Source: Longimicrobiales bacterium (GTDB lineage: Bacteria; Gemmatimonadota; Gemmatimonadetes; Longimicrobiales; RSA9). Taken from it: 64,000 nt of DNA. Below the pieces are notes generated by a model that saw only the letters and a program-made list of their open reading frames with translations, had not been told where the DNA came from and made no database searches. The translations under genes and the position numbers were made by a program. Below, piece by piece: positions 17,267 through 40,565 of the stretch (position 1 is its first letter; each line of letters starts with the position of its first letter). Location of the stretch: contig DASVDH010000078.1 in assembly GCA_036381195.1 (NCBI GenBank), positions 10,250 to 74,249 of the forward strand, written 5' to 3'.

Positions 17267-19078
17267 TCAGTGACTGCTGCCGCGCGCCGCGGCTGGTGCG
17301 AGCGCCGAGCTCGGCACCGGCCGGCGTGCCGGGCGGGGGTGTTTCACGATGAAGCGGCCGATCGCGAGATAGTCGAGCTTGCCATCGAGGAACGCCCGGA
17401 CGCAGTCGTCCGCGCTACAGACGATGGGCTCCTCGTGCATGTTGAAGCTGGTGTTGATGATGCCGGGCAGGCCCGTGCGCCGGTGATACGCCTCGATGAT
17501 GCGGTGGTACTCGGGATTCACCTCCCGCCGGACGAGCTGGGGGCGGGCGGTGCCATCGATGTGCACGACCCCCGGCATGCGGCGGCGCATCCAGGGCGTG
17601 CAATCGAAGGTGATGGTCATGAACTCCGCCGCGTGCTCCCCGCCTGCGAGGTCCTCGAAGCACGCCTCGCGATGCTCGTAGAGGACGGACGGCGCGAACG
17701 GCATGAACTCCGTGCGGTGCAGGTTCTTGTTCAGCCAGTCGTTCACGCCCGGGTCGGTCGCCTGGTAGAGGATCGAGCGATTGCCGAGCGCGCGCGGGCC
17801 GTACTCCATGCGGCCGGCCGCACGGGCGACGACGTGCCCGGCGGCAAGGAGCTCGGCGATGCGTTCCTCGAACGGAGCGCCAGCGTCGTCGGAGCGTTCC
17901 GGAGTCAGGCCGTACTTCCGCAACGCGGCGGCGATCTCATCGTCATCGAAGCCCGGGCCGAGATAGACGTGCTCGAGGGGGTTCGGGTCCGGCGTCATCG
18001 GGACCGGGAGGAGTCCCGGCACGCAGGCGGCGAGTGCGGCGCCGACGCCGAGACCGCCGTCGCCCATGTGGGGATGGATGAAGATCCGATCCACTTCGGG
18101 AAGCCGATGGACCTCCTGGTTGACCCGGACGTTGGCGAAGACGCCGCCCGCCACAGCCACGTTGCGCAGCCCCGTGCGGCGCGCCCAGTGCTGGACGAAG
18201 CGCGGGACGAGCTCCTCGAAGTGCCGCTGGATGCTCGCGGCCAGGTCCTCGCGCTTCCAGCCCGCCGGCAGCCGCCTCTCCAGTTGCCGGGCCGCCTCGC
18301 CGAAGACGACGCCGGCCCGGTTGATGAACGTGCCGTTCTCTTCGACGATCATGTCCCGCAGGAGGGGGAGGAAGCGCGGCTCCCCGTGTGCGGCCAGGCC
18401 GGTGAGCTTCCCTTCGTGCTTCTGGGCCTTGAACCCGCAGATGTGCGTGGCGTAAGCGTAGTAGTTCCCGAGCGAGTTGAACGCCGCGATGGTGTGGAGG
18501 TGCTCGAGACGGCCGGTTCTGGCGGCGTACACCGTCCCGCTCTTGCCGTCGCCGCCGCCATCGAGCGAGATCACCAGGGCGTCATCGAAGCCGCTGGTGA
18601 AGTATGCCGACGCGATGTGCGCGAGGTGATGGTCCACGAAGTGGATCGGGCACCGGACCCCGAACTCCCGGCGCAAGATGCGACGGATGCTCCGCCGGCG
18701 GTGCCGGAAGGTCGGCTCGAGGAGGAGGTAGTACGCCCTCTCAAGCCCCGGGAGGCGGTCGCGATACCGCGAAAGCTTGCCGGCGGCGCGCTTGATCGTC
18801 CCGCCGAGCCCGGCCGCGCGCTCCCAGTGCTGGAACCAGCCCTCGAAGGGCTGCAGTTCGTCCACGAAGAGATCCTGCCTGGATGACACAAGCACGGCGT
18901 CCAGCTCCTCCACCGTGGTGGCGGCCAGGCGGAGCGTCTCCCGGATGGACGTGCGCGGGAATCCTTCGACCAGCTTCATCCTGGACGTCCGCTCCTCGTT
19001 CAACGCTGCGAGGATGCGGCCATCCTCGGCGATCGCGGCTCCGCTATCGCCCTCTGTGGCGATTCCGAGGACTTTCAT
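17267..19078 (-). CDS. carbamoyltransferase (NodU/CmcH family)
   Basis: ATG 19078 is preceded by GAGGAA. MKVLGIATEGDSGAAI..., HHLAHIASAYFTSGF, and the YrdC/Kae1-like architecture typical of NodU/CmcH. The upstream 181 aa of ORF 17267..19621 are Arg/Pro-rich junk. Confidence 0.9.
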   Translation of the reverse strand: MKVLGIATEGDSGAAIAEDGRILAALNEERTSRMKLVEGFPRTSIRETLRLAATTVEELDAVLVSSRQDLFVDELQPFEGWFQHWERAAGLGGTIKRAAGKLSRYRDRLPGLERAYYLLLEPTFRHRRRSIRRILRREFGVRCPIHFVDHHLAHIASAYFTSGFDDALVISLDGGGDGKSGTVYAARTGRLEHLHTIAAFNSLGNYYAYATHICGFKAQKHEGKLTGLAAHGEPRFLPLLRDMIVEENGTFINRAGVVFGEAARQLERRLPAGWKREDLAASIQRHFEELVPRFVQHWARRTGLRNVAVAGGVFANVRVNQEVHRLPEVDRIFIHPHMGDGGLGVGAALAACVPGLLPVPMTPDPNPLEHVYLGPGFDDDEIAAALRKYGLTPERSDDAGAPFEERIAELLAAGHVVARAAGRMEYGPRALGNRSILYQATDPGVNDWLNKNLHRTEFMPFAPSVLYEHREACFEDLAGGEHAAEFMTITFDCTPWMRRRMPGVVHIDGTARPQLVRREVNPEYHRIIEAYHRRTGLPGIINTSFNMHEEPIVCSADDCVRAFLDGKLDYLAIGRFIVKHPRPARRPVPSSALAPAAARGSSH

Positions 19079-19184
19079 GGATTCCTCAGGTGGAGGGCTG
19101 CGGTTCGACCCCGGTACGGCAGACTCGGCTCCGCCACCGGGGGATCGCGACATTGTACTGGATGCTTGCTCGCAGCCCGCTACC

Positions 19185-19200
19185 TGCAAGGAGGATGCCG
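19185..19200 (-). promoter_or_regulatory. candidate sigma-54 (-24/-12) promoter for the carbamoyltransferase gene
   Basis: Minus strand reads CGGCAT-CCTCC-TTGCA against consensus TGGCAC-N5-TTGCW. GG and GC have exact spacing. Predicted TSS is near 19173, about 95 nt upstream of ATG 19078. Confidence 0.5.
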
Positions 19201-19615
19201 GCAAGGGATGGGGGCCGGGGCAGGCCGGTATCGGGGGCGAGTGAGGGGGAACGCGCATGGCCGTAGGAGATGCGGCAGGCGGGTGCCGGCGGGCTGATCG
19301 GTCCGCCCGGCGGGCGCGGGCCCGCGCGCAACGACCGTGGCAGCGGGGCCACACCCCGGCGCCGCGCGCGGCCGCGGCATCGCCGGGGCGGCTCCCGGCA
19401 CGACGTGGCGGGCGCGTGTTGCGGGCCGTCCGTTCCGGTGCGCCAGCGGATGCGCGCTGCCGCTTCCCGAGGGAAGGCCGCCGGCCGGCCGGTGACCCGC
19501 GCGTAGCCCGTAGACCTGCCGCTCGATGCCGGCCGTTGGTGACGGGGTTCCCGGTACGGGCCGGAGGTCGGCTCGTGCCGGTCCACGCGAGACCCCTGCG
19601 GCCGCCGGCCTCGAC

Positions 19616-19631
19616 GGGCACGTGTCTTGCT
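19616..19631 (+). promoter_or_regulatory. candidate sigma-54 (-24/-12) promoter for the deacetylase-FemAB-DegT-GT operon
   Basis: Plus strand reads GGGCACG-TGTC-TTGCT against consensus TGGCACG-N4-TTGCW, with only the first base deviating. Predicted TSS is near 19643, followed by AGGAG at 19654-19658. Confidence 0.65.
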
Positions 19632-19665
19632 CCCCGGGCAGCGCCACGTCGACAGGAGTTCCACG

Positions 19666-20493
19666 CTGATTCACCATTTCACGATCGACGTCGAGGAGTA
19701 TTTCCAGGTTTCCGCGTTCGAGGCATGCGTGCCGCGGGAACGCTGGGATCTGCTCGAGAGCCGTGTGGCGCGGAGCGTCGCGCGACTGCTGGAGCTGCTG
19801 GCCCGGCATCGCGCACGTGCCACCTTCTTCGTCCTCGGCTGGGTCGCGGAGCGCCACCCCGGCATCGTCCGGGACGTGGTGGGCGCCGGGCACGAAGTCG
19901 CTTCCCACGGCTGGGACCATGCGCGCATCCCGGACCTGCGGCCGGAACGCTTCCGACTGGAGGCGCGGCGGACCAAGCAGGTCCTGGAGGACCTGGCGGG
20001 TGCGCCCGTCGTCGGGTTCCGGGCGCCCAGCTTCTCGCTGTTGCCGGGATACGAGTGGGCGCTGGACATCCTGCTGGAGGAGGGCTACCGCTACGACTCC
20101 AGCCTCTTCCCCGTTCGTCGCCCCGGCTACGGCTACCCGAACGGGAAACGAGACCCGCACTGGCTGCGGCTGCCGGGCGGGCGGCTCGCCGAAGTGCCTC
20201 CGACGACCCTGCGGCGCTGGGGCCTCAACCTCCCGGCAGGGGGCGGGGCCTACTTCCGGTTGCTGCCGTACCGGCTCGTCCGCGAGGCGCTCCTGGACTG
20301 CGAGCAGAGGGGCGTGCCGGGGACCTTCTACATCCACCCGTGGGAGCTGGACCCCGGGCAGCCGCGGCTGCGGGCGCCGTTCCTGACGCGGATCCGGCAC
20401 TACGGCGGGTTGCAGAGGACGGAGCGCCGGCTCGTGCGCCTGTTGGAGGAGTTCCGCTTCGGGCGGATCATCGACACGGTGGCTACGCTGTGA
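19666..20493 (+). CDS. polysaccharide deacetylase, XrtA/PEP-CTERM-system-associated type (CE4 domain + DUF3473-like C-terminus)
   Basis: HHFTIDVEEYFQVSAFE..., ATFFVLGW, SHGWDH, and the C-terminal YIHPWELDPGQPR motif typical of the TIGR03006-like family. The ORF-track start (TTG 19627) lies inside the sigma-54 promoter match. I place the start at CTG 19666 (or ATT 19669), 7-10 nt after AGGAG. The start is uncertain. Confidence 0.8.
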   Translation: MIHHFTIDVEEYFQVSAFEACVPRERWDLLESRVARSVARLLELLARHRARATFFVLGWVAERHPGIVRDVVGAGHEVASHGWDHARIPDLRPERFRLEARRTKQVLEDLAGAPVVGFRAPSFSLLPGYEWALDILLEEGYRYDSSLFPVRRPGYGYPNGKRDPHWLRLPGGRLAEVPPTTLRRWGLNLPAGGGAYFRLLPYRLVREALLDCEQRGVPGTFYIHPWELDPGQPRLRAPFLTRIRHYGGLQRTERRLVRLLEEFRFGRIIDTVATL

Positions 20494-21560
20494 GCGTCGC
20501 GGGATCCGTCGTTGCAGAGAGTCGGCGCTCGGCGCCGACCGTGGTCGCGCCTTGGGATGGCGACGCGCGCGCCTGGGACGAGTTCGTCCTGCGGGCGGAG
20601 GGCGGGACGTTCTGCCACCTGTCCTCCTGGCGGGAGGTCATCGGCGAGGTCCTGGGGCACGAGTGCCTGTACGCGGCCGCGCTGGCGCCGGGCGGCGAGC
20701 TGGTCGGCGTGCTGCCCCTGATTCGGGTCCGCAGCCCGATCTTCGGCCACTACCTCGTCTCCATGCCCTTCCTCAATGCGGGCGGGCCGCTCGGCTCGGG
20801 CGAGGCCCAGGAGCGCCTGGTCTCGTGGGCGGTCGAGGAGGCGCGGCGGTCGCGGGCAGACCTGCTGGAGCTGCGGAGCCGCGATGCTGCCGCGCCGGAG
20901 CTGGCTCGCTCGGACCGGAAGGTGACCGTGCTGCTGCCCCTCCCTGCGTCTGCGGAGACGTTGTGGCACCAGACGTTCCGGTCGAAGCTGCGGAGCCAGA
21001 TCCGGCGCGCCCAGAAGGCGGGGATGGAGGCCCGCTTCGGGCCGGACCAGGCGGAAGCGTTCTACGAGGTCTTCACGCGGAACATGCGGGACCTGGGCAC
21101 GCCGGTGCTGCCGTGGCGCTTCTTCGATGCGATCCGCGCGCGCTTCGAGGAGATTGTGGTCTTCGCGGCCGTGTACCGGCGAGGCGAGCCCGTGGCGGGG
21201 GGGTGTGGTTTCGCCTTCCGTGGCACGTTCGAGCTGACGTGGGCCTCGTCGCTCCGGCGCTATGCCCCGGAGGCGCCGAACATGCTCCTCTACTGGTCGC
21301 TCATGGAGCACGCGATCGCGCGGGGGATGGAGGTGTTCGACTTCGGCCGCTGCACCCCGGGCGGCGGAACGCACCGGTTCAAGCTGCAGTGGGGCGGCGC
21401 GGACCAGCCGCTCCCCTGGTCGCGGTGGTCGCCGCGCGGGCTCGCTGCGCCGCCGACGCCGGACCGGCCGGTCTACCGGGTCGCGGGCGCGGTGTGGCGG
21501 CGGCTGCCTCTCGCGGTCACGAAGGCCGTGGGGCCGCTCCTCGCCCGGAGTCTCCCGTGA
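20490..21560 (+). CDS. FemAB-family protein, PEP-CTERM/XrtA-system-associated type
   Basis: GTG 20490 overlaps the upstream stop (GTGA). WDEFV, LPLIRVRSPIFGHYLVSMPFLNAGGP and FDFGRCTPGGGTHRFKLQWGG resemble the TIGR03019-like FemAB/GNAT-fold family. Confidence 0.85.
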   Translation: MSVAGSVVAESRRSAPTVVAPWDGDARAWDEFVLRAEGGTFCHLSSWREVIGEVLGHECLYAAALAPGGELVGVLPLIRVRSPIFGHYLVSMPFLNAGGPLGSGEAQERLVSWAVEEARRSRADLLELRSRDAAAPELARSDRKVTVLLPLPASAETLWHQTFRSKLRSQIRRAQKAGMEARFGPDQAEAFYEVFTRNMRDLGTPVLPWRFFDAIRARFEEIVVFAAVYRRGEPVAGGCGFAFRGTFELTWASSLRRYAPEAPNMLLYWSLMEHAIARGMEVFDFGRCTPGGGTHRFKLQWGGADQPLPWSRWSPRGLAAPPTPDRPVYRVAGAVWRRLPLAVTKAVGPLLARSLP

Positions 21561-22831
21561 GCGCGCCGGCGGTGACCCGGGTGCGGGCGAGGGCCCGCGG
21601 GGGGCGGACGAGCGAGCCGCGGCTCGGCGGGCCATTCCGGCATCAGCCGCCGGTCCGCTCGCCGGTCCCGCCGGGCGCGTTCGTTGCCGCCATCCGGCAG
21701 CTTCTCCGGCTCGCCCCCGATCCGCGACCGCGCCTTTCGGCCCTGCTGGAGGCGGTGTACGGAGCCGAGCGCGTGGTGCTCTGCTCCAGCGGCACGGCGG
21801 CGCTCCAGCTCGCGATCCGGGTCGCGGCGGCGCACGCGGGCGAGCCGGGGCCGGTCGCGCTCCCGGCGTTCACGTGCTACGACGTCGCCTCCGCGGCGAT
21901 CGGCGCGCAGGCGAGTCTCGTGCTGTACGACGTCGAGCCCTCGGCGCTCGCGCCGGATCTCGCGTCGCTGGAGCGGGCCCTGCGCGTCGGCGCCCGTGTC
22001 GTGGTGGTCTCGCCGCTGTACGGGATCCCGGTGGATTGGGGGGCCGTCCAGGCGCTGTGCGACCGCTACGGCGCGGTGCTCATCGAGGATGCGGCCCAGG
22101 GCCACGGCGCCGCCTGGCGCGGCCGGCCGATCGGCTCGCTCGGCGCGATCAGCGTGCTGAGCTTCGGCCGCGGGAAGGGGTGGACGGGCGGCAAGGGAGG
22201 CGCGTTGCTGCTCCGGGGCGCTGCTGCCGGAGCGCACGCTCGGGTGGCGGAGGAGCTGGCAGGGACGTCCGCATTCGTCGAAGCCCGCGTGGTCGCCGGA
22301 TCGCTGGCGCAGCAGGTCCTCGGGCGTCCCGGGCTCTACGCCCTGCCTCGCGCGGTGCCGTGGCTGCACCTCGGCGAGACGCGGTACCGGCCGCCCGTCC
22401 CGCCCGCGGCGTTGCCCAGGGCGGCGGCAGCGCTCCTGCAGGCCTCCAAGGATGCCGCGGATCGGGAAGCCGCACGGCGGCGGGCGAACGGCGAGTTCTT
22501 CCGTGCACGGCTCGACGGCATCGCAGGCATTGGGGTACCGGCCCCGCCGCCGCAGGCGAGCCCCGGGTACCTGCGCTTCCCGGTGCTGGTCCGGGGCGGA
22601 GCCGGGGCGCTCGGTCCCTCGGCCCTCCTCCGGCGCTTCGGGGTGGAGGCCGGGTACCCGCAGCCGCTCTCGGAGCTCGGCCCCGTGCGTGGGCGGCTGG
22701 CCACCGACCCCGGTCCGCTGCGAGGCGCGACGGCCCTGGCGCGGGAGCTGGTGACGCTGCCGACGACTTCGCTACTCGGTGATTCGGAAAAGCACGGCCT
22801 GTTGCGTCTCCTCGATCGATTGCGACGGTGA
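21557..22831 (+). CDS. DegT/DnrJ/EryC1/StrS-family (PLP-dependent) aminotransferase-like protein
   Basis: GTG 21557 overlaps the upstream stop (GTGA). CSSGTAALQLAI, LIEDAAQGHGA and the candidate PLP-Lys region SFGRGKGWTGGKGGALL. Confidence 0.75.
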   Translation: MSAPAVTRVRARARGGRTSEPRLGGPFRHQPPVRSPVPPGAFVAAIRQLLRLAPDPRPRLSALLEAVYGAERVVLCSSGTAALQLAIRVAAAHAGEPGPVALPAFTCYDVASAAIGAQASLVLYDVEPSALAPDLASLERALRVGARVVVVSPLYGIPVDWGAVQALCDRYGAVLIEDAAQGHGAAWRGRPIGSLGAISVLSFGRGKGWTGGKGGALLLRGAAAGAHARVAEELAGTSAFVEARVVAGSLAQQVLGRPGLYALPRAVPWLHLGETRYRPPVPPAALPRAAAALLQASKDAADREAARRRANGEFFRARLDGIAGIGVPAPPPQASPGYLRFPVLVRGGAGALGPSALLRRFGVEAGYPQPLSELGPVRGRLATDPGPLRGATALARELVTLPTTSLLGDSEKHGLLRLLDRLRR

Positions 22832-23853
22832 ACGGTCTGGACCGGGAACGGAGCGGACCTCACGGTTGGGCCACGACGGCCAGTGCCGGAGGCAGCTCGG
22901 AGCCCGGGCCGGCGCTGTCCGTCGTCGTGCCGCTGTACAACGAGGAGGGGAACATCCACCCCCTGGTTTCCGCCGTCCGGGAGGCGCTCGCGGCCGTGGA
23001 ATCGTGGGAGCTTCTCCTGGTGGATGATGGCAGCACGGACGGGACGGCCGCGCGTGCGCTGGAGTGCTGCGGCGCGGACCCGCGGGTGCGGCTGTTGAGA
23101 CTCGCCAGGAACTACGGGCAGACCGCCGCGATGCAGGCGGGGTTCGACCACGCGCGGGGGGCCGTGGTGGTCAGCATGGACGGCGACATGCAGAACGATC
23201 CCGCCGACATCCCACGGCTGGTTGCCCGGCTCGACGAGGGGTTCGACCTCGTGGCGGGCTACCGCGAGCGGCGGCGGGACAAGGTCCTGACACGGAAGGT
23301 GCCCTCCTGGCTGGCGAACCGACTGATCCGGCGCGTGACGGGCGTTCCGATCCGGGACAACGGCTGCTCGCTGAAGGCGTTTCGCCGGGACCTGCTGCAC
23401 CGGCTGCACCTGTACGCGGACCTGCACCGGTTCATTCCCGCGGTGGCCGCAGCGACGGCCGGCGCGCGGATCACGGAGATACCGGTTCGGCATCATCCCC
23501 GGCAGTACGGCCGGAGCAAGTACGGTCTTTCGAGGACGGTGAAGGTCCTGCTGGATCTGCTGACGGTCCGGATGATCCAGCGGGTGCGGGAGCGGCCGCT
23601 CCAGCTCTTCGGCGCCGGCGCGCTCGCCGCGTGCGTGTGCGGCGCCGTGTTCGCGGCCTTCGCGGCGATCGCATACGCCAGGTTCGGTCCGGACAAGGCC
23701 TACTCCGTCGTGTTTCCGGCCGTGTCCCTGCTCTGGTTCGGGCTCGGGGCCTACCTGCTCATGCTCGGGCTGATCGCCGAGGCCGCGCTGCGGGAGGACC
23801 TCCCGGGACACGGACGGAACGCGCCGGTCGTGCGTGAGGTGTCGGGCTCATGA
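22828..23853 (+). CDS. GT2 polyprenol-phosphate sugar synthase-like glycosyltransferase (ArnC/GtrB/DPM1 type)
   Basis: GTG 22828 overlaps the upstream stop (GTGA). LSVVVPLYNEEGNI, LLLVDDGSTDGT and SMDGDMQNDP, plus two C-terminal TM helices as in ArnC/GtrB. Confidence 0.8.
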   Translation: MNGLDRERSGPHGWATTASAGGSSEPGPALSVVVPLYNEEGNIHPLVSAVREALAAVESWELLLVDDGSTDGTAARALECCGADPRVRLLRLARNYGQTAAMQAGFDHARGAVVVSMDGDMQNDPADIPRLVARLDEGFDLVAGYRERRRDKVLTRKVPSWLANRLIRRVTGVPIRDNGCSLKAFRRDLLHRLHLYADLHRFIPAVAAATAGARITEIPVRHHPRQYGRSKYGLSRTVKVLLDLLTVRMIQRVRERPLQLFGAGALAACVCGAVFAAFAAIAYARFGPDKAYSVVFPAVSLLWFGLGAYLLMLGLIAEAALREDLPGHGRNAPVVREVSGS

Positions 23854-24887
23854 ACAGCGCGGATACGGCGGTTTCCGGGAGCGCGGCGTTCACGACTGCC
23901 GACCTGCGGCCGTCGACGGTCTCCGTGATCGTGCCGGTCACGGAGAGGCCCGAGCCGCTGGCGGAGCTCTACCGCGAGTACGCCGCGCCCCTGCGCGCGG
24001 CGGGGCACTCATTCGAGTTCCTGTTCGGCTGCGAGCCGTGGGCCCGCGGGCTTGCAGGGCCGGTGGCTGCGCTGGCGGACGCGGGCGAGCCCGTACGGGT
24101 GCTGGAGGTGGCGAACAGCGCCGGGGAGACGACGCTGCTGAAGGCGCTGGCGGCGCGCGCGGAGGGCGGGATCGTGATCACGCTGCCCGCGTACCGACGC
24201 GTGGAGTCGGCCGTGTTGCCCGTGCTGATCGCGCGGGTCGAGCAGGGCGCCGACATGGTGCTCGCCCGCCGCTGGCCGCGCCGCGACTCGTGGATCAACC
24301 GCCTCCAGAACCGGCTCTTCCACGCTCTCGTCGGCCGCGTGTCGGGCGGCGAGCTGCACGACATCGCGTGCGGGGTCCGGGCGATGCGGCGAGAGGTGCT
24401 GCTGGACCTCCCCGTCTATGGCGACCTGGCGCGGTTCCTCCCGCTGTTCGCCGTGCGGGAGGGCTACGACGTCCGGGAGGTCGATGCGCCGCAGCACCGC
24501 GCCGACGTCCATACGCGGATCTACGGCGCCGGCACGTACCTGCGGCGCCTGCTCGATGTGCTCGGGCTCTTCTTCCTGCTGCGATTCACGGACAAGCCAC
24601 TGCGCTTCTTCGGCCTGATCGGCAGCTCACTCCTGCTGGGCGGCGCGGTCCTGCTGCTCGTGCTCTTCATCCAGCGCCTGGGCGGGGAGGGCATCGCGAA
24701 CCGGCCGTTCCTGCTCCTGGGCTCGCTGCTCGCCGTTCTCGGGGTGCAGGCCATCGCGCTCGGACTCGTCGGCGAGATCATCGTGTATCTGCACGCGCCC
24801 TCGCGCCGGCCGTACCGGCTCGCGCGGACGCGGACACCGCGGTCCGAGGAGGCGGTGGCAACGCCGGTGGCCGCGGATCGGCAATGA
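23850..24887 (+). CDS. GT2-like glycosyltransferase, divergent, with C-terminal TM helices
   Basis: ATG 23850 overlaps the upstream stop (ATGA). VSVIVPVTERPEPL. Same topology as the preceding gene, with two C-terminal TM helices. The DDGS-type motif is not conserved (FLFGCEP). Confidence 0.7.
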   Translation: MNSADTAVSGSAAFTTADLRPSTVSVIVPVTERPEPLAELYREYAAPLRAAGHSFEFLFGCEPWARGLAGPVAALADAGEPVRVLEVANSAGETTLLKALAARAEGGIVITLPAYRRVESAVLPVLIARVEQGADMVLARRWPRRDSWINRLQNRLFHALVGRVSGGELHDIACGVRAMRREVLLDLPVYGDLARFLPLFAVREGYDVREVDAPQHRADVHTRIYGAGTYLRRLLDVLGLFFLLRFTDKPLRFFGLIGSSLLLGGAVLLLVLFIQRLGGEGIANRPFLLLGSLLAVLGVQAIALGLVGEIIVYLHAPSRRPYRLARTRTPRSEEAVATPVAADRQ

Positions 24888-24912
24888 CCGGAGGAAAGGC
24901 GACGAACGTTCG

Positions 24913-29669: not shown

Positions 29670-29685
29670 TGGTACTCGCCTTGCA
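29670..29685 (+). promoter_or_regulatory. candidate sigma-54 (-24/-12) promoter for the GT4/GT2 pair
   Basis: Plus strand reads TGGTAC-TCGCC-TTGCA, one mismatch to TGGCAC-N5-TTGCA. Predicted TSS is near 29697, only ~8 nt before ATG 29704. Confidence 0.6.
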
Positions 29686-32050: not shown

Positions 32051-32052
32051 GC

Positions 32053-32166: not shown

Positions 32167-33513
32167 TCAGGCCGGCCGGGGGCCGGACGGGCCGTCGGCC
32201 TTTCTCAGCAGCCGGTCCATCTCGCTTGCGAGCGTCGGGTAGTCGATGGCGGCCGCGGGCTCGATCCGGGCGGGCTGCGCCCGCAGCCACAGCCGCCGGA
32301 GGACGGAGACGATCCCGTCGATGTCCGTCGGCTCGCACGCGATCGCGCCGATCCGGCGCGCCTCCCGCGCGGCAGCGCTCGATGACTCCCCGATGACGAG
32401 CGTCGGCAGCCCCAGCGCCACGCACTCGTAGAGCTTGGCGGGGACCTGCATCTCCTGATCCTGGGCCAGGACCAGCGCGAGGTGCGACCGGCAGAGGAGG
32501 CCGAGGGCCTCGTCGCGCGGCAGGATGCCGTGCGTCTCGACGATGTCGCCGAGCGCGCCGGCCGCGACCTGTTCGCGGAGGCGCGCCTCGTGAGGACCGG
32601 CGACCGCGCCGGCGAGGTGCAGCCGCGTCATCGCCCGGGCGTCCGGGTGCTCGGCCAGGAACCCACCCAGCGCCGCCAGGACGGGCCCGAGGTCGCGGCC
32701 CGCGTAGAGCGTGCCGACGTGCGCGACCGAGAGGCCTGGCCCCGGCTCGGCGCTCCGCGCCGGGAGAGGTTCGGGGTCGATTCCGTTGGGGATCCACTCC
32801 ACGGCGAGCGTGGGATACTTGCGACGCGCGGCTTCCGCGAACTCGGCGGTGTTGGCAATGACGAGGGCCGCGCGGCGGAGCACCGCGCGCTCGAGACGTG
32901 GGGTCAGCCAGCGGGCGACGCGGGAGGAAGAAAGGCCCGTGCTCCAGGTCTTGCCGAGCAGGTCCGACCACGGGTCGCGCATGTCGACGCGGTGGAGTCC
33001 GGGTCTCCCGAGAGTGGCGAGCATCCCGGCGACATGGGCCGAGTGTGGCGGGCCGCTGCTGACGACTGCGTCGAAGGCCATGCGCCGCAGCAGGCGGCGC
33101 GCCGCCAACGCGCTCTTCAGCACCCAGCCGCGGGCGTAGTCCGGGAGCTCGAGCAGGATGGCGAGCTCGGCCCGGATGCGCTGGAGCGGGGTGGGCGCCG
33201 ACTCCGTGGCCGGGCCCGCGGCGCCGGAGCCAGTCGGTGCGCCGGGACGCGCGGAGCGGATCCGGCGTGCGACGGCGTTGTAGGCGTCGTTGAGCGTGCG
33301 CGCCCGACGGCAGGTGTGCACGTGGACGCCGGGGACGGCCGTCGCCGCCTCGGCCGCGGTGATCACGTGCACCTCCCAGCCGAGGCGGGCGAGGTACTTG
33401 GCGTACCCAGCCCAACGCAGTCCGCCGACCGACCCGTCCGGCGGGTAATGATACGTGATCACGAGCAACCGCCGTGCGGCGGCGCCGGCCGTTCCCGGCT
33501 CTCGATCGCTCAC
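32167..33513 (-). CDS. glycosyltransferase, GT4/group-1 type
   Basis: GTG 33513 overlaps the stop of the ATP-grasp gene (GTGA). RLLVITYHYPPDGSVGGLRWAGYAKYLARLGWEVHVIT. C-terminal GT-B region. Confidence 0.8.
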   Translation of the reverse strand: MSDREPGTAGAAARRLLVITYHYPPDGSVGGLRWAGYAKYLARLGWEVHVITAAEAATAVPGVHVHTCRRARTLNDAYNAVARRIRSARPGAPTGSGAAGPATESAPTPLQRIRAELAILLELPDYARGWVLKSALAARRLLRRMAFDAVVSSGPPHSAHVAGMLATLGRPGLHRVDMRDPWSDLLGKTWSTGLSSSRVARWLTPRLERAVLRRAALVIANTAEFAEAARRKYPTLAVEWIPNGIDPEPLPARSAEPGPGLSVAHVGTLYAGRDLGPVLAALGGFLAEHPDARAMTRLHLAGAVAGPHEARLREQVAAGALGDIVETHGILPRDEALGLLCRSHLALVLAQDQEMQVPAKLYECVALGLPTLVIGESSSAAAREARRIGAIACEPTDIDGIVSVLRRLWLRAQPARIEPAAAIDYPTLASEMDRLLRKADGPSGPRPA

Positions 33514-34715
33514 GGCGTTCCCTTCCCTGCCCTCGCGAACCAGTCCAGGGACTCCCGCAGCGCCGGCGCGGGATCGGACCAGCGGAAGACCTCGCTGCGG
33601 TCGCCGGGTCTCCACGGCACGAGGACAGCCAGGAGCGACCGCCACCTGGGCGGGAAGTCCGGCGGGAGGGCGAGCTCCTCCCGCGATCGCCTCAGGATCG
33701 CGAGCAGGTGATCCACGTCCCCCCACCACCACCGGCTCCGGACGCCCGCGCGGTACGGCGGCTGCGGCGGCAGCGGCTCGCCGAGCGCCAGCCGGACGAG
33801 CCGGACCGGAAAGTCCACACCGGCGTCCACGGCGAGCTGGAGCGAGCCCCAGAACCTGCCGTTCACCTCCATGAGGTATGGCTCGCCCGTGGACGCGTCG
33901 ACCTTGTACTCGACCATCGCCACGCCCTGCCAGCCGAAGCCTGCCAGGAGCGCCGTCGAGGCGCGGACCAGCTCCGGATCCGGCGGGATGCTCTCGCGGT
34001 AGACGCTGACCCCGCCAGCGGGTGGCCTCTCGCGGATCCGGCGGTGGGAGAACACCGCGTCCGTGCGGCCGTCCCACAGCAGGAGGAAGATGCCGACGCC
34101 GGGGCCGATGATCCGCTGCTGGAGCAGGACGGGGAAGGCCGCATCCGGCAGTTGCGCCAGGCGCCGGCGCAGCTCGCCCTCGTCGCGGGCGAACGCCACG
34201 CCGAGCTTCAGCCTTCCGTGGCCGCTCTCGGCCACGGACCGCGCCGGCTTCACGACGAGCGGGTAGCGCAACGAATCCAGATCCAGGGCGCCGGCGTCCT
34301 CCGGGCGGGCCAGGATCCGCTGCTCGGGGACCGAGATCCCGACCTGCCGCGCCGCTGCGAGGACGCGCGCCTTGTCGCAGGCCGCGCGGAACACGGGCTC
34401 TTCCGGGAAGGGGACGCAGATGCCGCCGAAGCGGGAACGCTCGCTGAGGACCGCGAGGAGAGAGGCCTCGGTGACGGGGAGGAGGACGCGCGCGCCGGTG
34501 GTCCGGGCACGCTGCTCGACTGCCTGCACGAACCCGCGTGCGTCGCGCAGCGGGTCGGGCACGCGCTGCTCATCCGCGCAATACCTCGAGGCGCCCGCGA
34601 GGGAGCGCCCCCGCGTCGAGCAGACGTGGACCGTGTATCCGGCCCGCCCCAACGAGCGGACAACGGCGAGAGCAGCGCGCTCGTCACCATCCGTCACGAG
34701 GACCGGGATAGCCAT
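33510..34715 (-). CDS. ATP-grasp domain protein (carboxylate-amine ligase type)
   Basis: MAIPVLVTDGDERAALAVVRSLGRAGY (pre-ATP-grasp), YPLVVKPARS, VLLQQRIIGPGVGIF and MVEYKVD...YLMEVNGRFWGSL. Confidence 0.8.
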   Translation of the reverse strand: MAIPVLVTDGDERAALAVVRSLGRAGYTVHVCSTRGRSLAGASRYCADEQRVPDPLRDARGFVQAVEQRARTTGARVLLPVTEASLLAVLSERSRFGGICVPFPEEPVFRAACDKARVLAAARQVGISVPEQRILARPEDAGALDLDSLRYPLVVKPARSVAESGHGRLKLGVAFARDEGELRRRLAQLPDAAFPVLLQQRIIGPGVGIFLLLWDGRTDAVFSHRRIRERPPAGGVSVYRESIPPDPELVRASTALLAGFGWQGVAMVEYKVDASTGEPYLMEVNGRFWGSLQLAVDAGVDFPVRLVRLALGEPLPPQPPYRAGVRSRWWWGDVDHLLAILRRSREELALPPDFPPRWRSLLAVLVPWRPGDRSEVFRWSDPAPALRESLDWFARAGKGTP

Positions 34716-34725
34716 TCGGGGCAGG

Positions 34726-36177
34726 TCAGGAGCGCGGGCGCCGCACGGGGATTCGGGCGGCCACCTGCCGCGGGTGCGCCCCAGCTACGCGGTCGGCCAC
34801 GGCGGGGCGCCCGTGGACGGAACGGACGCCCGTCACCTTGGCGAGCCCGACGATGACGCCGTGGACGACGAACATGTACGCAGCATACGCCTGAGACAGG
34901 AAGAAGCCGCAGATCACGTAGCCGATGATGGTCCCCGCGAGCGCGTGGCCGAGGACCACCTCGTCCGATTGGGTGGTCCCGCGGCCCGGCGCAGGATCGA
35001 TGCTGCGTGCCGTCCTGTACGCATGGACCAGGAGGAGCACGAGTGCGACCAGGCCGCCGATCCCGAGCTCCGCGCCGATCTCCACGAAGGAGTTGTGCGC
35101 AGCGGACCACTTCAGGCCGATTCCGTACTCCTGCCGCTCGGCCAGCGGAGAGATCGTGCCCTCCGCGACCGGGAACGCGCGGACGCCGACGCCCGTCACG
35201 GGGCGGGACAGCATGTAGCCGATTCCTCGTTTCCAGACCTCCATCCGACCGGCCTCGGAGTTGCCGCTCCAGTTGTAGTCCTGCGTAGGATGGAGCAGCG
35301 TGCGCATCATGCTCCAGTAGGTGTCGTTGCCGGCCAGCAGCAGCAACGCCAAGCACGCGCCGACCGCCGCCATGCGCACCTTCACGGGGACCGACCGGAA
35401 CGCCAGCAGGAGATAGCCGCCCACGCCGAGCAGGCCCAGGAACGCCCCCCGCGAGCCCGTCTTGATGATCACAAGCACGAACAGACCGATGCAGAGGGCG
35501 GCGGCGGCGCGCCCGAGGAGAGTGCGTCCGCGGAGCACGAAGAAAACGGCGAGCGGGAGGGAGCAGACGAGCAGCATGCCGAGGTCGTTCGCATCGTAGT
35601 AGACGATGTTTCCCAGACGTCCGCTCGGCCCGATGCTCAGATTCAGATACACGAACTGTGCGTAGATCGCGCCGCCGATCACGATGAAGGCGGCGTAGCG
35701 GCGCACATCCTCCAGCGTCCGGATGCTCGCCGCGAGGATGATCATGAGCAGGAAGTTCTTGCTCAGGTCATCCTTGATGAAGCCGAAGCTCAGTCCCTGA
35801 TAGAGACTGGTGGGGACGGAGGCCACGGCGAGCGCCACGATCGCGATGACGCAGGCGGTCACCGGATGCCGGATCGTGTTCAGCTTGCGCCGAGGATCCC
35901 CGTCCATCACGTAGAGGCCATACATCGCGAGCGAGGCGAGGATCGGCAGCTTGACCGTCGCGAGGATCGGGTAGAGGTCCTGGACGCGCCAGACGTACGT
36001 CAGGATGCTCACTGCCACCGCGAGCAGGAGCATGTCTACTTTCGCGGATTGCCGGGCCGCGACCACGCGCGTGCGCCCTGCCCGCGCCCCTGCCACGGGC
36101 GGAGCGGGAGGTCGCCGGATGCCGGCCGGGGTTCGGCCGATCGTGCCAGGTGGAAGACGGATCGACATGCGCCTCAT
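34726..36177 (-). CDS. O-antigen ligase/polymerase (Wzy_C-domain) family membrane protein
   Basis: Polytopic. KTGSRGAFLGLLG and SAAHNSFVEIGAELGIGG motifs are typical of the O-antigen-ligase domain. The N-terminal 48 aa are Arg/Pro-rich, so the true start may be ATG 36033. Confidence 0.75.
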   Translation of the reverse strand: MRRMSIRLPPGTIGRTPAGIRRPPAPPVAGARAGRTRVVAARQSAKVDMLLLAVAVSILTYVWRVQDLYPILATVKLPILASLAMYGLYVMDGDPRRKLNTIRHPVTACVIAIVALAVASVPTSLYQGLSFGFIKDDLSKNFLLMIILAASIRTLEDVRRYAAFIVIGGAIYAQFVYLNLSIGPSGRLGNIVYYDANDLGMLLVCSLPLAVFFVLRGRTLLGRAAAALCIGLFVLVIIKTGSRGAFLGLLGVGGYLLLAFRSVPVKVRMAAVGACLALLLLAGNDTYWSMMRTLLHPTQDYNWSGNSEAGRMEVWKRGIGYMLSRPVTGVGVRAFPVAEGTISPLAERQEYGIGLKWSAAHNSFVEIGAELGIGGLVALVLLLVHAYRTARSIDPAPGRGTTQSDEVVLGHALAGTIIGYVICGFFLSQAYAAYMFVVHGVIVGLAKVTGVRSVHGRPAVADRVAGAHPRQVAARIPVRRPRS

Positions 36178-36316: not shown

Positions 36317-37231
36317 TCATGCGTGGAAAAGCCCCGCCGCGCGGAGCGCGAAGCCTCGCCGCGAGCTGCCCGCCGGGATATTGATCCGCGGGAGCGCGTA
36401 CCGCTGCATCCCTCTGCGAGGCAGCAGGCCGCCGGTGACTCGCAGTGCTGCGGCGTAGCCCGCCCGGGCGACGGCCGCCTCCACCGCGGGCGAGGTCATG
36501 CCGTAAGGATACGATAACCAGGGCAGGACCCGCTCGAAACGCTCCCGCAACCAGCGTAGCGGCAGCTCCAGCTCCTGGGCGAGCTCGGCCGCCAGGAGTC
36601 GGACGAGATTGGGATGACTCCACGTGTGTGAGCCGAGCGACAGGCCGGGATGCTGGAGCGCGCACGCCAGTTCCTCCTCGCTGGCTGCACGCGCGTGCGC
36701 CGGAACGGTCGTCTGCGCGATTCCCGCCTGTGCTGCCCAGCGCCGGATCTCGGAATCCACTCCTCGCAGACCCGCGAGCGCGTGGGCGCGAAGCTCGGCA
36801 TCGAGCCCCTCGGGGCCCGAGGCCAGGCTGTCCCACCAGAAGGATCGGCCACCGACGAATGCCGGTGCGACGAAGACCGTGGCCGGAAGGCCGCGGGCAC
36901 GCAGCTCCGCCACGCCGCAGGTGATCGCGCCGCGGTACGCGTCATCGAAGGTGATTGCCACGCGGGGCCGCCGCGGCGGCCTGTCGGGCGGTCGCAGGAG
37001 CGCATCCAGCGGCACGACCTCGTGGGTCTCGACGAGATGATCGAGCTGGGCCCGGAACTGCTGAACCGGCAGATGCAGCGAGCGATCGCCCGCCGGCTCC
37101 TCGCCTTCAGGGACGATGTTGTGGTACGCGAGCACACACCCGCGGCCCGTGCTGAGGCGGCGGGCCAGCGCGGCAGCGCCGCATCCCATCAGAACCGCCT
37201 CGAGCGACGCCTTCAGATGCTGCCGGATCAT
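36317..37231 (-). CDS. polysaccharide deacetylase (NodB-homology/CE4-like)
   Basis: ATG 37231 overlaps the upstream stop (ATGA). VAITFDDAYRG and GSHTWSHPNL motifs. Confidence 0.8.
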   Translation of the reverse strand: MIRQHLKASLEAVLMGCGAAALARRLSTGRGCVLAYHNIVPEGEEPAGDRSLHLPVQQFRAQLDHLVETHEVVPLDALLRPPDRPPRRPRVAITFDDAYRGAITCGVAELRARGLPATVFVAPAFVGGRSFWWDSLASGPEGLDAELRAHALAGLRGVDSEIRRWAAQAGIAQTTVPAHARAASEEELACALQHPGLSLGSHTWSHPNLVRLLAAELAQELELPLRWLRERFERVLPWLSYPYGMTSPAVEAAVARAGYAAALRVTGGLLPRRGMQRYALPRINIPAGSSRRGFALRAAGLFHA

Positions 37232-38616: not shown

Positions 38617-40565
38617 GCCAGCCATCGATACCGCCATGCCTGGAACATCAAGACGGCCCAGAGCCCAATCGCGAGCTGGTCATGGCCATCCTGCAGCGCG
38701 GCCCAGGCGCGATGGACGCTGACGCCGCGGAGGATGCCGTCCCGATCCAGGGCGTCACGGTCGAGGAGGTCCTCGGCCCACGGTCGCAGCGCGCCGCGCA
38801 GCCACGTGGCGATCGGCACCGAGAACCCCATCTTGGGGCGATCCACCAGCTCCTGCGGCACGCGACGGTAGAGCGCCTGGCGCAAGAGCCACTTCCCCTG
38901 GCGCCCGCGGATCTTGAGGTTGCGGGGCAAACACCAGGAGAACTCGATGATGCGGTGATCGAGCAGAGGGACGCGGACCTCCAGGCTGACCGCCATGCTC
39001 GCACGATCCACCTTGGCCAGCAGGTCGTCGGGGAGGTACATCGCCTGGTCCGTCAGCATCATCCGTTCGAGCAGCGGAAACGCCGCGCCCGCCTCGAACG
39101 CCCGGTCCACGGGACTCGGCTGCGACTCGCCGCAACGCAGGATCCGGCCGGGCTCCTGCCACGCGCTGAGCAGTGAGCGGTACATCTCGAGCGGCGAGTC
39201 CCAGCTCATCAAGGCCCCGAACTTGACGATCTTCTCGCCGGGCAGCCGGTGGCGCGCTGCCACCGGGAGTACGGGACTGACCGAGCGGTAGAGCCGGTCC
39301 CAGGAGCGGGACGAGACGCGGCCGATGCCGGCCGCGACGACGCGCCGGAGCGGCCTGGGCATCCGTTGCAGCCCCCCGATCGCCTGCTCTCCCTGGATGT
39401 AGCGGTGGTAGCCCGCGAAGACCTCGTCACCGCCATCGCCTGAAAGCGCCACGGTCACGCTCCGTCGCGCGAGCTGGGACACCAGGAAGGTCGGGATCTG
39501 CGAGGGATCCGCGTGCGGCTCGTCGAAGATGTCGGGCAGCCGCGGGACCACGGCGCGCGCGTCTTCGTCCGTCAGCACGAGCTGCGTATGATCGGTGCCC
39601 ACGTACGCGGCGACCCGCGCCGCAGCCGGCGCCTCGTCGTAATCCGGGTGATCGAATCCGATGGAGAACGTCCTGACCGGGCGCGACGAGAGACTCTGCG
39701 CGACGGCGGTCACCGTCGAGGAATCGATCCCGCCCGAGAGGAGCGTGCCCAGGGGGACATCCGACAGCAGGCGCAGGCGCACCGAATCCGTGAGGAGCGC
39801 ATCGAACTCCTCGAGCGCCTCCATCTCCGTGCCCCTGAACGGAGCGGCACGTCCGCGCGCAGCCGCATCGACCAGCGACCAGTACGGCCGTGACGCGGGG
39901 AGCGGCTCGTCCACCGAGCGGACCGTCAAGATGTGGCCGGGGGGCAGCTTCGAGGCGTCGGCGTAGATCGTCCTGGGTGCGGGGACGTACAGGTACCGTA
40001 GGTACGCCGCCAGCGCAGCGGTGTCGAGCTCACGATCGAATTCAGGGCCCTCGACCAGGGACTTGAGCTCGGATCCGAACGTCAGGATGCCGGGTTGCCA
40101 CGAGATGTAGAGGGGCTTGATCCCGAGGCGGTCCCGCAGCAGGAAGATCTCACGGGTGGCGGCATCCCAGACGGCCATCGCGAACATCCCGATGAAGCGG
40201 TGGACTGCGGGCTCGACGCCCCAACGCTCGAACGCCGCCAGGATCGTCTCCGTATCCGAGTGGCCGCGAAAACGGAAGCCGGCTCCCTCGAGCTCCGTGC
40301 GGAGGGCCCGGTGGTTGTACACCTCGCCGTTGAAAACCAGAGTGTAGCGCCCGGAAGGCGAGCGCATCGGCTGGCGGCCGTTCGCCGAGAGATCGAGGAT
40401 GGCGAGTCGCCGGAAACCCAGCGCGATGCCGGCCTCGGCATCCGCCCAGACCCCTTCGTCATCGGGACCGCGGTGCGCGATGGGCGCGATCATCCGCCGC
40501 ACCGCCGCCTCCAGCCCAGCGCGCTCGTATCCTCGAGTCGAGACTATTCCCGCAAAGCCACACAT
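38613..40565 (-). CDS. asnB: asparagine synthase (glutamine-hydrolysing) family amidotransferase
   Basis: The ATG at 40565 gives MCGFAGIV.... HRGPDDEG, FNGEVYN and the PP-loop LSGGIDSS are present. Confidence 0.9.
   Translation of the reverse strand: MCGFAGIVSTRGYERAGLEAAVRRMIAPIAHRGPDDEGVWADAEAGIALGFRRLAILDLSANGRQPMRSPSGRYTLVFNGEVYNHRALRTELEGAGFRFRGHSDTETILAAFERWGVEPAVHRFIGMFAMAVWDAATREIFLLRDRLGIKPLYISWQPGILTFGSELKSLVEGPEFDRELDTAALAAYLRYLYVPAPRTIYADASKLPPGHILTVRSVDEPLPASRPYWSLVDAAARGRAAPFRGTEMEALEEFDALLTDSVRLRLLSDVPLGTLLSGGIDSSTVTAVAQSLSSRPVRTFSIGFDHPDYDEAPAAARVAAYVGTDHTQLVLTDEDARAVVPRLPDIFDEPHADPSQIPTFLVSQLARRSVTVALSGDGGDEVFAGYHRYIQGEQAIGGLQRMPRPLRRVVAAGIGRVSSRSWDRLYRSVSPVLPVAARHRLPGEKIVKFGALMSWDSPLEMYRSLLSAWQEPGRILRCGESQPSPVDRAFEAGAAFPLLERMMLTDQAMYLPDDLLAKVDRASMAVSLEVRVPLLDHRIIEFSWCLPRNLKIRGRQGKWLLRQALYRRVPQELVDRPKMGFSVPIATWLRGALRPWAEDLLDRDALDRDGILRGVSVHRAWAALQDGHDQLAIGLWAVLMFQAWRYRWLA

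Follow-up and report, generated by a model that had tools for sequence, protein, structure and literature searches.

A 64-kb stretch of DNA from a Longimicrobiales bacterium (contig DASVDH010000078.1, positions 10,250 to 74,249; hereafter, the window) is one very large exopolysaccharide (EPS) locus, as revealed by Pfam and NCBIfam scans, and its nitrogen-chemistry genes are three independently conserved, separately inherited cassettes placed side by side. In each cassette, a CE4 deacetylase that is predicted to be cytoplasmic is combined with an amide-forming enzyme, a different one each time: cassette A comprises AsnB1, an FAD oxidoreductase, the Cys-less AsnB2, and CE4a; cassette B comprises CE4b, FemAB, DegT, and two GtrB/ArnC-like GT2 proteins; and cassette C comprises AsnB3, a GT4, CE4c, Wzy, an ATP-grasp enzyme, and a second GT4. 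We consider it probable that the window represents an approximately 60-kb EPS super-locus of the Wzx/Wzy type, derived from an exosortase-type locus, in which the three pairings of CE4 with an amide ligase tailor sugar precursors. A preliminary description of the same DNA had predicted from these genes a single, heavily N-decorated polymer. All of the genes that it listed exist, intact, in the families that it named and at or within a few codons of the positions that it gave, and its account of the chemistry of these families (CE4, FemAB, ATP-grasp, AsnB, NodU/CmcH) is correct; its claims about density and about one polymer fared less well, as described below.

Raw lists of open reading frames were useless because the window has a G+C content of 70%; genes were called with a codon-usage model trained on the window itself, yielding approximately 42 genes. 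Families were assigned by Pfam and NCBIfam scans of the window proteins, and NCBIfam scores were judged against the curated cutoffs. The window encodes approximately 16 glycosyltransferases of families GT2 and GT4, two Wzx flippases, one Wzy_C protein, and two GT-C/PMT_2-like proteins, together with one short priming sugar transferase, one Wzc-like protein, and one Wza-like protein. The left boundary of the locus was inferred from a relative with 89% identity (L169; related loci and proteins are given by their L and P numbers).

Cassette B opens with the CE4b deacetylase, which carries DUF3473 (19627..20493, plus strand; TIGR03006, 342.8 versus a cutoff of 276.2), and continues with a FemABX-type tandem-GNAT transferase (FemAB; 20490..21560, plus strand; TIGR03019, 294.6 versus a cutoff of 260.35) and a DegT-family pyridoxal phosphate-dependent sugar aminotransferase (21557..22831, plus strand; PF01041, E = 9e-37), in which the SFGRGK motif is intact and the C-terminal half is divergent. 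The GTGA start/stop overlaps reported previously were present at 20490 and 21557, as well as at 33510-33513 in cassette C, whereas the overlap described between the ATP-grasp and Wzy genes proved to be a 10-nt gap that separates the stop codon of Wzy (34726) from the ATG of the ATP-grasp gene (34715). The CTG codon at 19666, previously taken as the CE4b start, is defensible, with AGGAG lying 8 nt upstream, although our gene model instead calls the TTG at 19627, which is overlapped by a sigma-54-like site at 19616-19630. The metal-binding and catalytic motifs are present in all three deacetylases, as TFDD and HSYAH in CE4a, TFDD and HTWSH in CE4c, and the variant DVEE and HGWDH in CE4b. Two tandem GT2 proteins, each with a C-terminal pair of transmembrane (TM) segments in a GtrB/ArnC-type architecture (22927..24887, plus strand; Pfam GT2), follow the triad, and the same GT2 pair adjoins the triad in L007, L009, L014, L018, L025, L033, and L043.

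The neighborhood of FemAB was surveyed in 80 FemAB-anchored genome loci, 33 of which had enough flank for 10-kb neighbor counts. A CE4/DUF3473 gene lies directly upstream of FemAB in 47 of 71 loci, a DegT gene lies directly downstream in 37 of 63, and the triad is kept in L006 and L008 though the surrounding genes all differ. Among family representatives at 50% identity, FemAB was found fused to DegT (P0250), to CE4, to DUF3473, and, in five proteins, to GT2 or GT4 domains. These fusions show that CE4, DegT, and FemAB function together as one unit in company with glycosyltransferases. A variant of cassette B with a ligase of its own was seen in L050 and L052, in which a distant ATP-grasp (29-30% identical to that of the window) is inserted between FemAB and DegT. 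An odd architecture was seen in P0363 (653 aa), where TIR_2 and a TRADD-like N-terminal region are joined to a FemAB/TIGR03019-like domain, resembling a conflict-system protein.

At the fold level, FemAB is predicted to be a transferase of the aminoacyl-tRNA-dependent type. Its structure model (predicted local distance difference test [pLDDT], 95.3) retrieved in Foldseek, at ranks 1 to 25, only aminoacyl-tRNA-dependent transferases (FemX, Sbb17/Sba18, FemA, and MprF/aaPGS), with acyl-CoA GNATs ranking lower. The FemX matches (E = 2e-18; TM-score, 0.65-0.69) include peptidyl-RNA complexes, and two of the structural neighbors, Sbb17 and Sba18, were solved with streptothrisamine. A FemAB family profile searched against the PDB likewise retrieved FemX (9e-16) and Sba18 (7e-13), with the FK..WG motif aligned. 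The residues F297 and K298 are nearly invariant within RFKxQWG, a motif that aligns with FKKVWG of Staphylococcus aureus FemX, whereas the alignment to Weissella viridescens FemX ends before residue 305, the position of the catalytic Lys305 in that enzyme. As judged from this model, the candidate amino acid donor of cassette B would be aminoacyl-tRNA, delivered via FemAB.

The core idea of the preliminary description, de-N-acetylation followed by re-acylation with an amino acid, has direct precedents in VimE/VimA and Orf11 and is further upheld by the fold of FemAB, so that N-aminoacylated amino sugars are a well-supported prediction for the product of cassette B. Genetics and mass spectrometry have established that Porphyromonas gingivalis and Tannerella forsythia make 2-N-seryl or 2-N-glycyl 3-N-acetyl-glucuronic acid or its amide, a linking sugar to which sorted proteins are joined by their C-terminus (Veith 2020, PMC7468200). 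The assigned steps are deacetylation by VimE (CE4), amino acid transfer by VimA, and amidation by WbpS (AsnB); VimA was reported to match TIGR03019, and the same role was explicitly proposed for exosortase loci (PMC7468200). The deacetylase-FemAB pair, which had been called functionally unexplained, has accordingly had a VimE/VimA precedent since 2020 (PMC7468200). Our search of the literature on exosortases and the linking sugar found nothing beyond this study. At the level of families, the cassettes resemble the Wbp/Vim pathway in having a CE4 (VimE), a TIGR03019-like transferase (VimA), an AsnB (WbpS), a DegT-type enzyme (WbpE/PorR), and a glycosyltransferase, and the logic of that pathway is deacetylation followed by the addition of Ser or Gly, whereas the sorting enzyme is PorU of the T9SS (type IX secretion system) in the Wbp/Vim system and an exosortase here.

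Outside this pathway, Orf11, a Gly-tRNA-dependent FemABX-like enzyme, aminoacylates an amino-sugar intermediate in vitro (PMC12945691). Orf11/Sbb17/Sba18 (PDB 9wqw, 9wqx, and 9wqy) share the tandem-GNAT fold with the window FemAB (Foldseek E = 4e-17; TM-score, 0.65-0.80) and use the amino-sugar intermediate streptothrisamine as the acceptor, but they belong to a Streptomyces natural-product pathway, have no deacetylase partner, and are only 18-20% identical to FemAB. The adhesive polysaccharide pathway of the Caulobacter holdfast combines HfsH (CE4) with HfsK, a FemX-like tandem GNAT that has been proposed to acylate the amines exposed by HfsH (PMC5362036). Binding of c-di-GMP by HfsK is a difference in the comparison with the window FemAB. 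The hfsH and hfsK genes are not known to be adjacent in Caulobacter.

Cassette C is the acyl-phosphate route, in which an ATP-grasp enzyme is combined with AsnB3. All of its genes lie on the minus strand. The ATP-grasp gene (33510..34715) encodes a carboxylate-amine ligase of the PF15632 type (ATPgrasp_Ter; Pfam E = 3e-10), and its stop codon is overlapped (GTGA) by the GTG start of a GT4 gene (32167..33513). On its other side lie a Wzy_C-domain membrane protein, a polymerase or ligase (34726..36033; PF04932, E = 5e-16; TIGR03097, 67 versus a cutoff of 188), and the CE4c de-N-acetylase (36317..37231; PF01522, E = 6e-16), which has no signal or TM segment and whose best NCBIfam match, to HfsH, is weak (36 bits). 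A further GT4 (37228-38616) and AsnB3 (38613-40565), which starts with MCGFAG, are linked by ATGA overlaps at 37228-37231 and 38613-38616. The identical order AsnB3-GT4-CE4c-Wzy-ATP-grasp-GT4 recurs in L001 and L090 at 71-80% identity (76% for the L001 ATP-grasp), and L003, a Longimicrobium contig, has directly overlapping CE4, ATP-grasp, and GT4 genes.

More than 6000 homologs of the ATP-grasp were found, and K156, E269, E283, and N285 are invariant, the last two within LMEVNGRF. Its structure model (pLDDT, 92.4) matched biotin carboxylase, PurK, and L-amino-acid ligase in Foldseek (E of approximately 1e-18), all of which, along with 2pn1, are equidistant. Among 80 ATP-grasp-anchored metagenome loci, 14 with at least 4 kb on both sides were counted: GT4 genes were nearby in 12, Wzy in 11, CE4 in 8, AsnB in 6, and CE4 or AsnB in 10, and FemAB was nearby in only 2 and a carbamoyltransferase in none. 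The frequent adjacency of CE4 favors acylation of a freed sugar amine by the ATP-grasp, and its alternative adjacency to AsnB leaves room for carboxylate chemistry. A polysaccharide-locus ATP-grasp is also known from Campylobacter jejuni, where the C-terminal ATP-grasp of Cj1438 amidates the C6 carboxylate of glucuronic acid with serinol phosphate or ethanolamine phosphate (PMC11800379). Cj1438 is TupA-like, fused to a GT2, and has no CE4 partner, whereas the window enzyme, for which the Pfam scan gave no TupA-like match, is of the PF15632 type and travels with CE4 or AsnB and with Wzy.

Cassette A is the acyl-adenylate route, which runs via AsnB1 and the Cys-less AsnB2. The presence of two AsnB-family genes (1620-3500 and 5638-7512) and of a third CE4 (8656-9753) in this part of the window, as listed in the preliminary description, was confirmed by family matches. 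AsnB1, a glutamine-dependent AsnB-family amidotransferase (1620..3500, plus strand; Asn_synthase, E = 7e-98, and GATase_7), starts with MCGIAG, scores above the TIGR01536 cutoff, and scores 603.5 for TIGR03108, below the cutoff of 816.9. The TIGR03108 scores of the three AsnBs (603.5, 552.4, and 261.6) all lie below this value, and AsnB3 is likewise above the TIGR01536 cutoff. The PP-loop SGGxDSS is present in all three AsnBs, and AsnB1 and AsnB3 also have the N-terminal Cys of class II glutamine amidotransferases, which AsnB2 lacks. The assignment of AsnB2 (5638..7512, plus strand; Asn_synthase, E = 3e-71, with a weak GATase match) to the AsnB family holds for its fold and for its PP-loop (SGGMDSS), but not for a glutaminase, since the protein starts with MILGT and has no Cys2 nucleophile; it also falls below the TIGR01536 cutoff. 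All ten sampled AsnB2 homologs (from Gemmatimonadota, KSB1, and Calditrichota; 41-89% identity) start with MI[FY]G, which indicates that AsnB2, an AsnB-fold adenylating enzyme, belongs to a conserved Cys-less subfamily and is not a decaying gene. In a PDB search, its solved relatives included the hydroxyamidotransferase 7ylz and beta-lactam synthetase; these two have the AsnB fold and couple an adenylated carboxylate to a partner that is not ammonia derived from glutamine. The subfamily as a whole (P0392-P0501; start, MI[FLY]G) reaches beyond Gemmatimonadota, KSB1, and Calditrichota into further phyla.

Between the two AsnB genes of cassette A lies a DAO-family FAD-dependent oxidoreductase gene (3476..5002, plus strand; PF01266, E = 2e-33), which occupies the identical position in L169; DAO-like genes also occur near the FemAB triad in L025 and L043. 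The cassette is completed by the CE4a de-N-acetylase (8656..9753, plus strand; PF01522, E = 7e-15), which has no signal or TM segment. The order GT4, AsnB1, FAD oxidoreductase, AsnB2, GT, CE4a, GT2, Wzx is repeated in L169, and in the KSB1 locus L170 a CE4 gene lies beside the Cys-less AsnB gene, with a normal AsnB gene, GT4 genes, and a UDP-sugar dehydrogenase gene nearby.

Divergently transcribed from cassette B is the gene for an O-carbamoyltransferase of the NodU/CmcH/TobZ family (17267..19078, minus strand), in which both Pfam domains, the Kae1-like N-terminal (Carbam_trans_N, E = 3e-40) and the YrdC-like C-terminal (Carbam_trans_C, E = 8e-58), matched over the full length and the HHLAH motif is intact. 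Among solved structures, it is closest to NovN, GdmN, and TobZ (E = 8e-77 to 3e-59), and it is not a NodU equivalog (118.7 versus a cutoff of 1000). L009 alone has an ortholog with 92% identity, another occupies the same position in L169, and near FemAB in seven other loci there are paralogs with approximately 30% identity.

The preliminary description regarded this collection of genes as unusually dense. Ten of the approximately 42 window genes belong to amine, amide, or carbamate families, and by our own rough estimate of the background frequency the set is denser than the genome background. For the lineage, this claim fails: L028, L070, L115, L137, L050, L043, and L147 each carry five such genes within 6.5-11 kb, compared with seven in 23 kb here, and the canonical proteobacterial XrtA loci L081 and L085 also have a second CE4, with two AsnBs in L081. 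These comparisons were made as gene counts per span. The ±10-kb FemAB survey was dropped as a test of whole-locus density, with only the carbamoyltransferase lying within 10 kb of FemAB in the window. Named homologs of the ATP-grasp and FemAB proteins come mostly from metagenome-assembled genomes (MAGs) of Gemmatimonadota, and the closest genome match, the Longimicrobiales MAG L009 (86-92% identity), has the same gene order as the window from GT2_9785 to the ArnC-like gene, carbamoyltransferase included. The arrangement is kept piecewise in the close relatives L009, L169, L001, and L007.

The proposal that all of these enzymes act on one polymer, giving a single EPS heavily decorated with aminoacyl or peptidyl amino sugars, uronamides, and carbamoyl groups, would suit several of these observations, and yet we regard it as unlikely. 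The enzymes, all predicted to be cytoplasmic, could act on each repeat unit prior to export; several operons have sigma-54-like sites in front of them, which suggests co-regulation; the window has one priming transferase, one Wzc, and one Wza; and the close relatives retain the same arrangement in pieces. However, the two Wzx flippases, the Wzy, the two GT-C proteins, and three further multi-pass proteins point to more than one glycan or assembly route, so that one heavily N-decorated polymer is not implied by the gene content. The cassettes, moreover, are separate in most relatives, as FemAB in only 2 of the 14 ATP-grasp loci illustrates. Of the 33 FemAB loci, 9 have AsnB within 10 kb of FemAB, 5 have a carbamoyltransferase, and 4 have an ATP-grasp, but none (0/33) has all three together. 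The only characterized homologous system has the aminoacyl sugar as a single linking residue (PMC7468200). The amidated uronic acids of this proposal are unsupported locally, with no uronic-acid-forming dehydrogenase in the window.

The derivation of the locus from an exosortase-type ancestor is recorded in a pseudogene remnant. The priming sugar transferase gene (53583-54317; EpsB-type model TIGR03013, 231.4 versus a cutoff of 393.35) is directly followed downstream by an N-terminal exosortase stub of approximately 50 codons (53357..53506, minus strand), the sequence of which, HPDVGHGLLLGPVAVFPVW, agrees with an N-terminal motif that is conserved in four exosortases of the Gemmatimonadota type. 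All four match this one spot when searched against the whole window (E = 1e-7 to 4e-5). The first TM segment of the stub has Arg substitutions, and a stop codon then follows. No exosortase catalytic body was found in any frame of 52.6-53.7 kb, and the feature is therefore a stub rather than a frameshifted gene. Family scans and an exosortase profile, built from Pfam-verified XrtA-EpsI proteins of L081 and L085 and their homologs, found no intact exosortase within the 64-kb window; it was this profile that located the stub. In L033, an intact exosortase gene follows the priming transferase gene in the same way, and in L070 an intact exosortase gene is flanked by cassettes C and B, all within 11 kb. 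The stub, together with the arrangements in L033 and L070, points to descent of the locus from one of the exosortase type, with loss of the exosortase that it once encoded locally.

Exosortases near the triad in L033, L037, L045, and L070 pass TIGR02602, the general exosortase model (139-153 versus a cutoff of 105.6) and fail both the XrtA model (140-159 versus 208) and the XrtD model (172-194 versus 400). The label "XrtA-type," which the preliminary description attached to the deacetylase-FemAB pair, stands insofar as CE4b and FemAB pass the exosortase-system models, but the window retains only a stub and the exosortases of the lineage fall below the XrtA cutoff. No PEP-CTERM tail was found in the window by a regular expression that did find textbook tails in L016, L017, L023, L056, L065, L067, and L083; a single hit at approximately 29995 was rejected as an off-frame artifact. 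In six loci from Gemmatimonadota, the CE4-FemAB(-DegT) unit has PEP-CTERM genes as neighbors (five such genes in L023, at 567-3489, and others in L016, L017, L056, L065, and L067), and these genes, with the exosortases of L033, L037, and L070, show that working exosortase systems exist in the phylum.

The regulatory genes of the locus resemble those of exosortase systems. A histidine kinase and a sigma-54-dependent response regulator of the PrsK/PrsR-like type (54614..57282, minus strand; TIGR02915, 371.4 versus a cutoff of 502.6) are encoded beyond the priming transferase, the PrsR-like activator gene itself being at 55732-57282. Sigma-54-like -24/-12 elements were found at 19616-19630 and 29670-29684 on the plus strand and at 47760-47774 and 53003-53017 on the minus strand, with a weaker one at 19328-19342 on the minus strand; the first precedes cassette B, and that at 47760-47774 heads the minus-strand run containing cassette C. 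The motif is not significantly enriched over the whole window (6 hits versus 3.3 expected), but its placement is significant, five of the six hits falling no more than 300 nt upstream of a start on the same strand (binomial P of approximately 5e-5). This placement fits the PrsR-like regulator and the published RpoN-dependent promoters of PEP-CTERM genes (PMC9850573), and the locus is probably sigma-54 regulated.

With the exosortase reduced to a stub and no PEP-CTERM tail in the window, in spite of the positive controls from other loci, cassette B might serve solely to build the acceptor for exosortase-sorted proteins, a role that Veith et al. proposed for exosortase loci (PMC7468200), and be vestigial in this genome after exosortase decay. 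We find this improbable, since CE4b, FemAB, and DegT are intact, with a strong coding signal, conserved motifs, translational coupling, and a sigma-54-like site upstream, exosortase and PEP-CTERM genes are both missing from the 10-kb surroundings in 64 of the 80 FemAB loci, and an exosortase could lie elsewhere in the genome. Housekeeping roles for the same genes, with AsnB1 and AsnB3 as true asparagine synthetases (both are above the TIGR01536 asparagine-synthase cutoff and below that of the XrtA amidotransferase), CE4 and FemAB in peptidoglycan modification, and the carbamoyltransferase, with orthologs only in the closest relatives, in small-molecule metabolism, are very improbable given the start/stop overlaps that couple the genes to glycosyltransferases, the synteny with GT4, Wzy, and CE4 genes that is conserved across 50-80% identity, the fusions of FemAB to glycosyltransferases in other family members, and the passing of exosortase-system-specific models by CE4b and FemAB.

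The window can be compared as a whole with the PEP-CTERM/exosortase EPS loci that were reportedly described by Haft in 2006. As in those loci, the CE4/DUF3473 and FemAB proteins pass curated system-specific cutoffs, and the window further contains paralogous AsnBs, GT4s, Wzc and Wza proteins, one priming transferase, and a two-component pair of the sigma-54 kind. Unlike them, the window has neither an intact exosortase nor a PEP-CTERM substrate, and its AsnBs, response regulator, and priming transferase are best or near-best matches that fall below the cutoffs. Extra in the window are a Cys-less AsnB, the cassette built around the ATP-grasp, and a DegT fixed to the deacetylase-FemAB pair. The locus elaborates a known exosortase-type EPS locus in a modular way that is typical of the lineage, and it is not a new type of system.

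Under the reading that we favor, a super-locus with three cassettes tailoring precursors, modification should occur on cytoplasmic precursors, because the three CE4s, FemAB, DegT, the ATP-grasp, and the three AsnBs have no TM- or signal-like segment in a hydropathy scan and their partners depend on ATP, glutamine, or charged tRNA. Unlike the deacetylases predicted here, those of the PgaB/IcaB type act extracytoplasmically. The substrates, the order of steps, the undecaprenyl-phosphate route, and the allocation of groups to glycans that we infer would be as follows. Tailoring would take place before export, on nucleotide-linked or polyprenyl-linked precursors. Cassette B would most likely follow the VimE/VimA logic: an N-acetylhexosamine-type sugar, possibly first aminated by DegT, would be de-N-acetylated by CE4b, and the amine thus freed would then receive an amino acid that FemAB takes from aminoacyl-tRNA. 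The GtrB/ArnC-like GT2s and the GT-C proteins suggest delivery via a polyprenyl-phosphate monosaccharide. Cassettes A and C would probably install further N-acyl or amide groups, and the carbamoyltransferase would probably add an O-carbamoyl group. In relatives with an intact exosortase, the free alpha-amine would accept exosortase-processed PEP-CTERM proteins, whereas the local exosortase is a stub here.

The Arn pathway, which modifies lipid A with L-Ara4N (4-amino-4-deoxy-L-arabinose), is a possible template for sugar delivery in cassette B, by analogy only. That pathway comprises the DegT aminotransferase ArnB, the GT2 ArnC with its C-terminal TM helices, the CE4-family deacylase ArnD, which acts on a lipid-linked sugar, and the GT-C enzyme ArnT. 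The window encodes two GT-C/PMT_2-like multi-pass glycosyltransferases (27599..29251, minus strand, and 41681-43081; PMT_2, E = 1e-4 and 3e-9; 8-11 TM-like segments), of which the former is a candidate periplasmic user of polyprenyl-phosphate sugars; a GT-C gene follows the triad in L070 and L014. Unlike the Arn pathway, the window has no ArnA and no ArnE/F, and FemAB has no Arn counterpart. Membership of cassette B in an Arn-like pathway was rejected, given the ArnC model score noted below.

Several points weigh against the favored reading. The localization of the tailoring proteins was predicted by a hydropathy scan of a simple kind. The structural neighbors of the ATP-grasp are equidistant and do not point to any one substrate. 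A PDB sequence search scored the WecE, WbpE, and ArnB types approximately equally for DegT, so that no sugar position can be assigned, and the ArnC-like assignment of the GT2s is weak (NF007986, 89 bits versus a cutoff of 529). The likeness of CE4b and FemAB to the Wbp/Vim enzymes depends on the reported match of VimA to TIGR03019. Equivalents of WbpA, WbpB, and WbpD are absent from the window, which has no UDPG_MGDP_dh, GFO/IDH/MocA, or hexapeptide acetyltransferase gene, and the full Wbp/Vim pathway is therefore not encoded locally. Pfam and NCBIfam scans found no UDP-sugar dehydrogenase gene in the 64 kb, leaving the AsnBs without a local source of uronic acid; such a gene lies beside AsnB genes in L081 and L170, and one could lie beyond the right edge of the window, after a UDP-GlcNAc 2-epimerase gene that begins at 62978. 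An exosortase may be present elsewhere in the source genome. Finally, the surveyed loci were anchored on FemAB or ATP-grasp, which biases them toward the genes counted, and they span only ±8-10 kb, so that whole-locus density cannot be measured from them.

Other genes of the window surround the cassettes. Three membrane proteins of approximately 500 aa (12325-13905, plus strand; 46016-47572/47716, minus strand; and 47828-49339, minus strand), with 7-10 TM-like segments each and no Pfam or NCBIfam match, are candidates for extra polymerases or GT-C-like transferases. A secreted protein of 1011 aa (49756-52791, minus strand) carries, besides five Big_2 repeats, Big_1 and Big-like domains together with a region weakly resembling PL14 lyases; a sigma-54-like site lies upstream of its gene, and it has no PEP-CTERM tail. 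A DUF5060/apiosidase-like glycoside hydrolase with a collagen-binding-like C-terminal domain (13972-15432, minus strand) lies inside the EPS locus and is kept in L009 and L169. Between the glycoside hydrolase and carbamoyltransferase genes is a gene for a weakly matching YdjM-like membrane protein (15950-16927, minus strand), and in the KSB1 locus L170 a YdjM gene (13009-13683), along with an LPG_synthase_TM gene, comes after the Cys-less AsnB gene. The tRNA and Rfam scans of the window found nothing.

The role of the deacetylase, FemAB, and AsnB genes in exosortase loci has been open since 2006, with the T9SS of Bacteroidota as the sole experimental handle. The source lineage is uncultured and no new type of system is established here; what the window and its relatives add is that in Gemmatimonadota the deacetylase-FemAB pair forms a fixed triad with DegT, which is fused to FemAB in one family member, and that two more conserved cassettes, one of ATP-grasp, CE4, and Wzy and one of Cys-less AsnB and CE4, repeat the logic of a deacetylase plus a ligase. 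As a tentative idea to which we give a minor chance, the three may be implementations of a general, unrecognized design rule, to deacetylate and then re-ligate, carried out with three carboxyl-activation chemistries. If this is true, the PF15632 ATP-grasps, always beside Wzy, CE4, or AsnB, and the Cys-less AsnBs would constitute new families that ligate N-acyl or aminoacyl groups to sugars or form lactams, the CE4-FemAB-DegT triad would need no exosortase to work, and the EPS would carry several distinct amino acid-like substituents. Collectively, our findings give testable sets of enzymes for N-acylated and aminoacylated sugars in the EPS of soil bacteria and put forward candidate enzymes for a long-missing activity, the attachment of amino acids to the sugars of polysaccharides.

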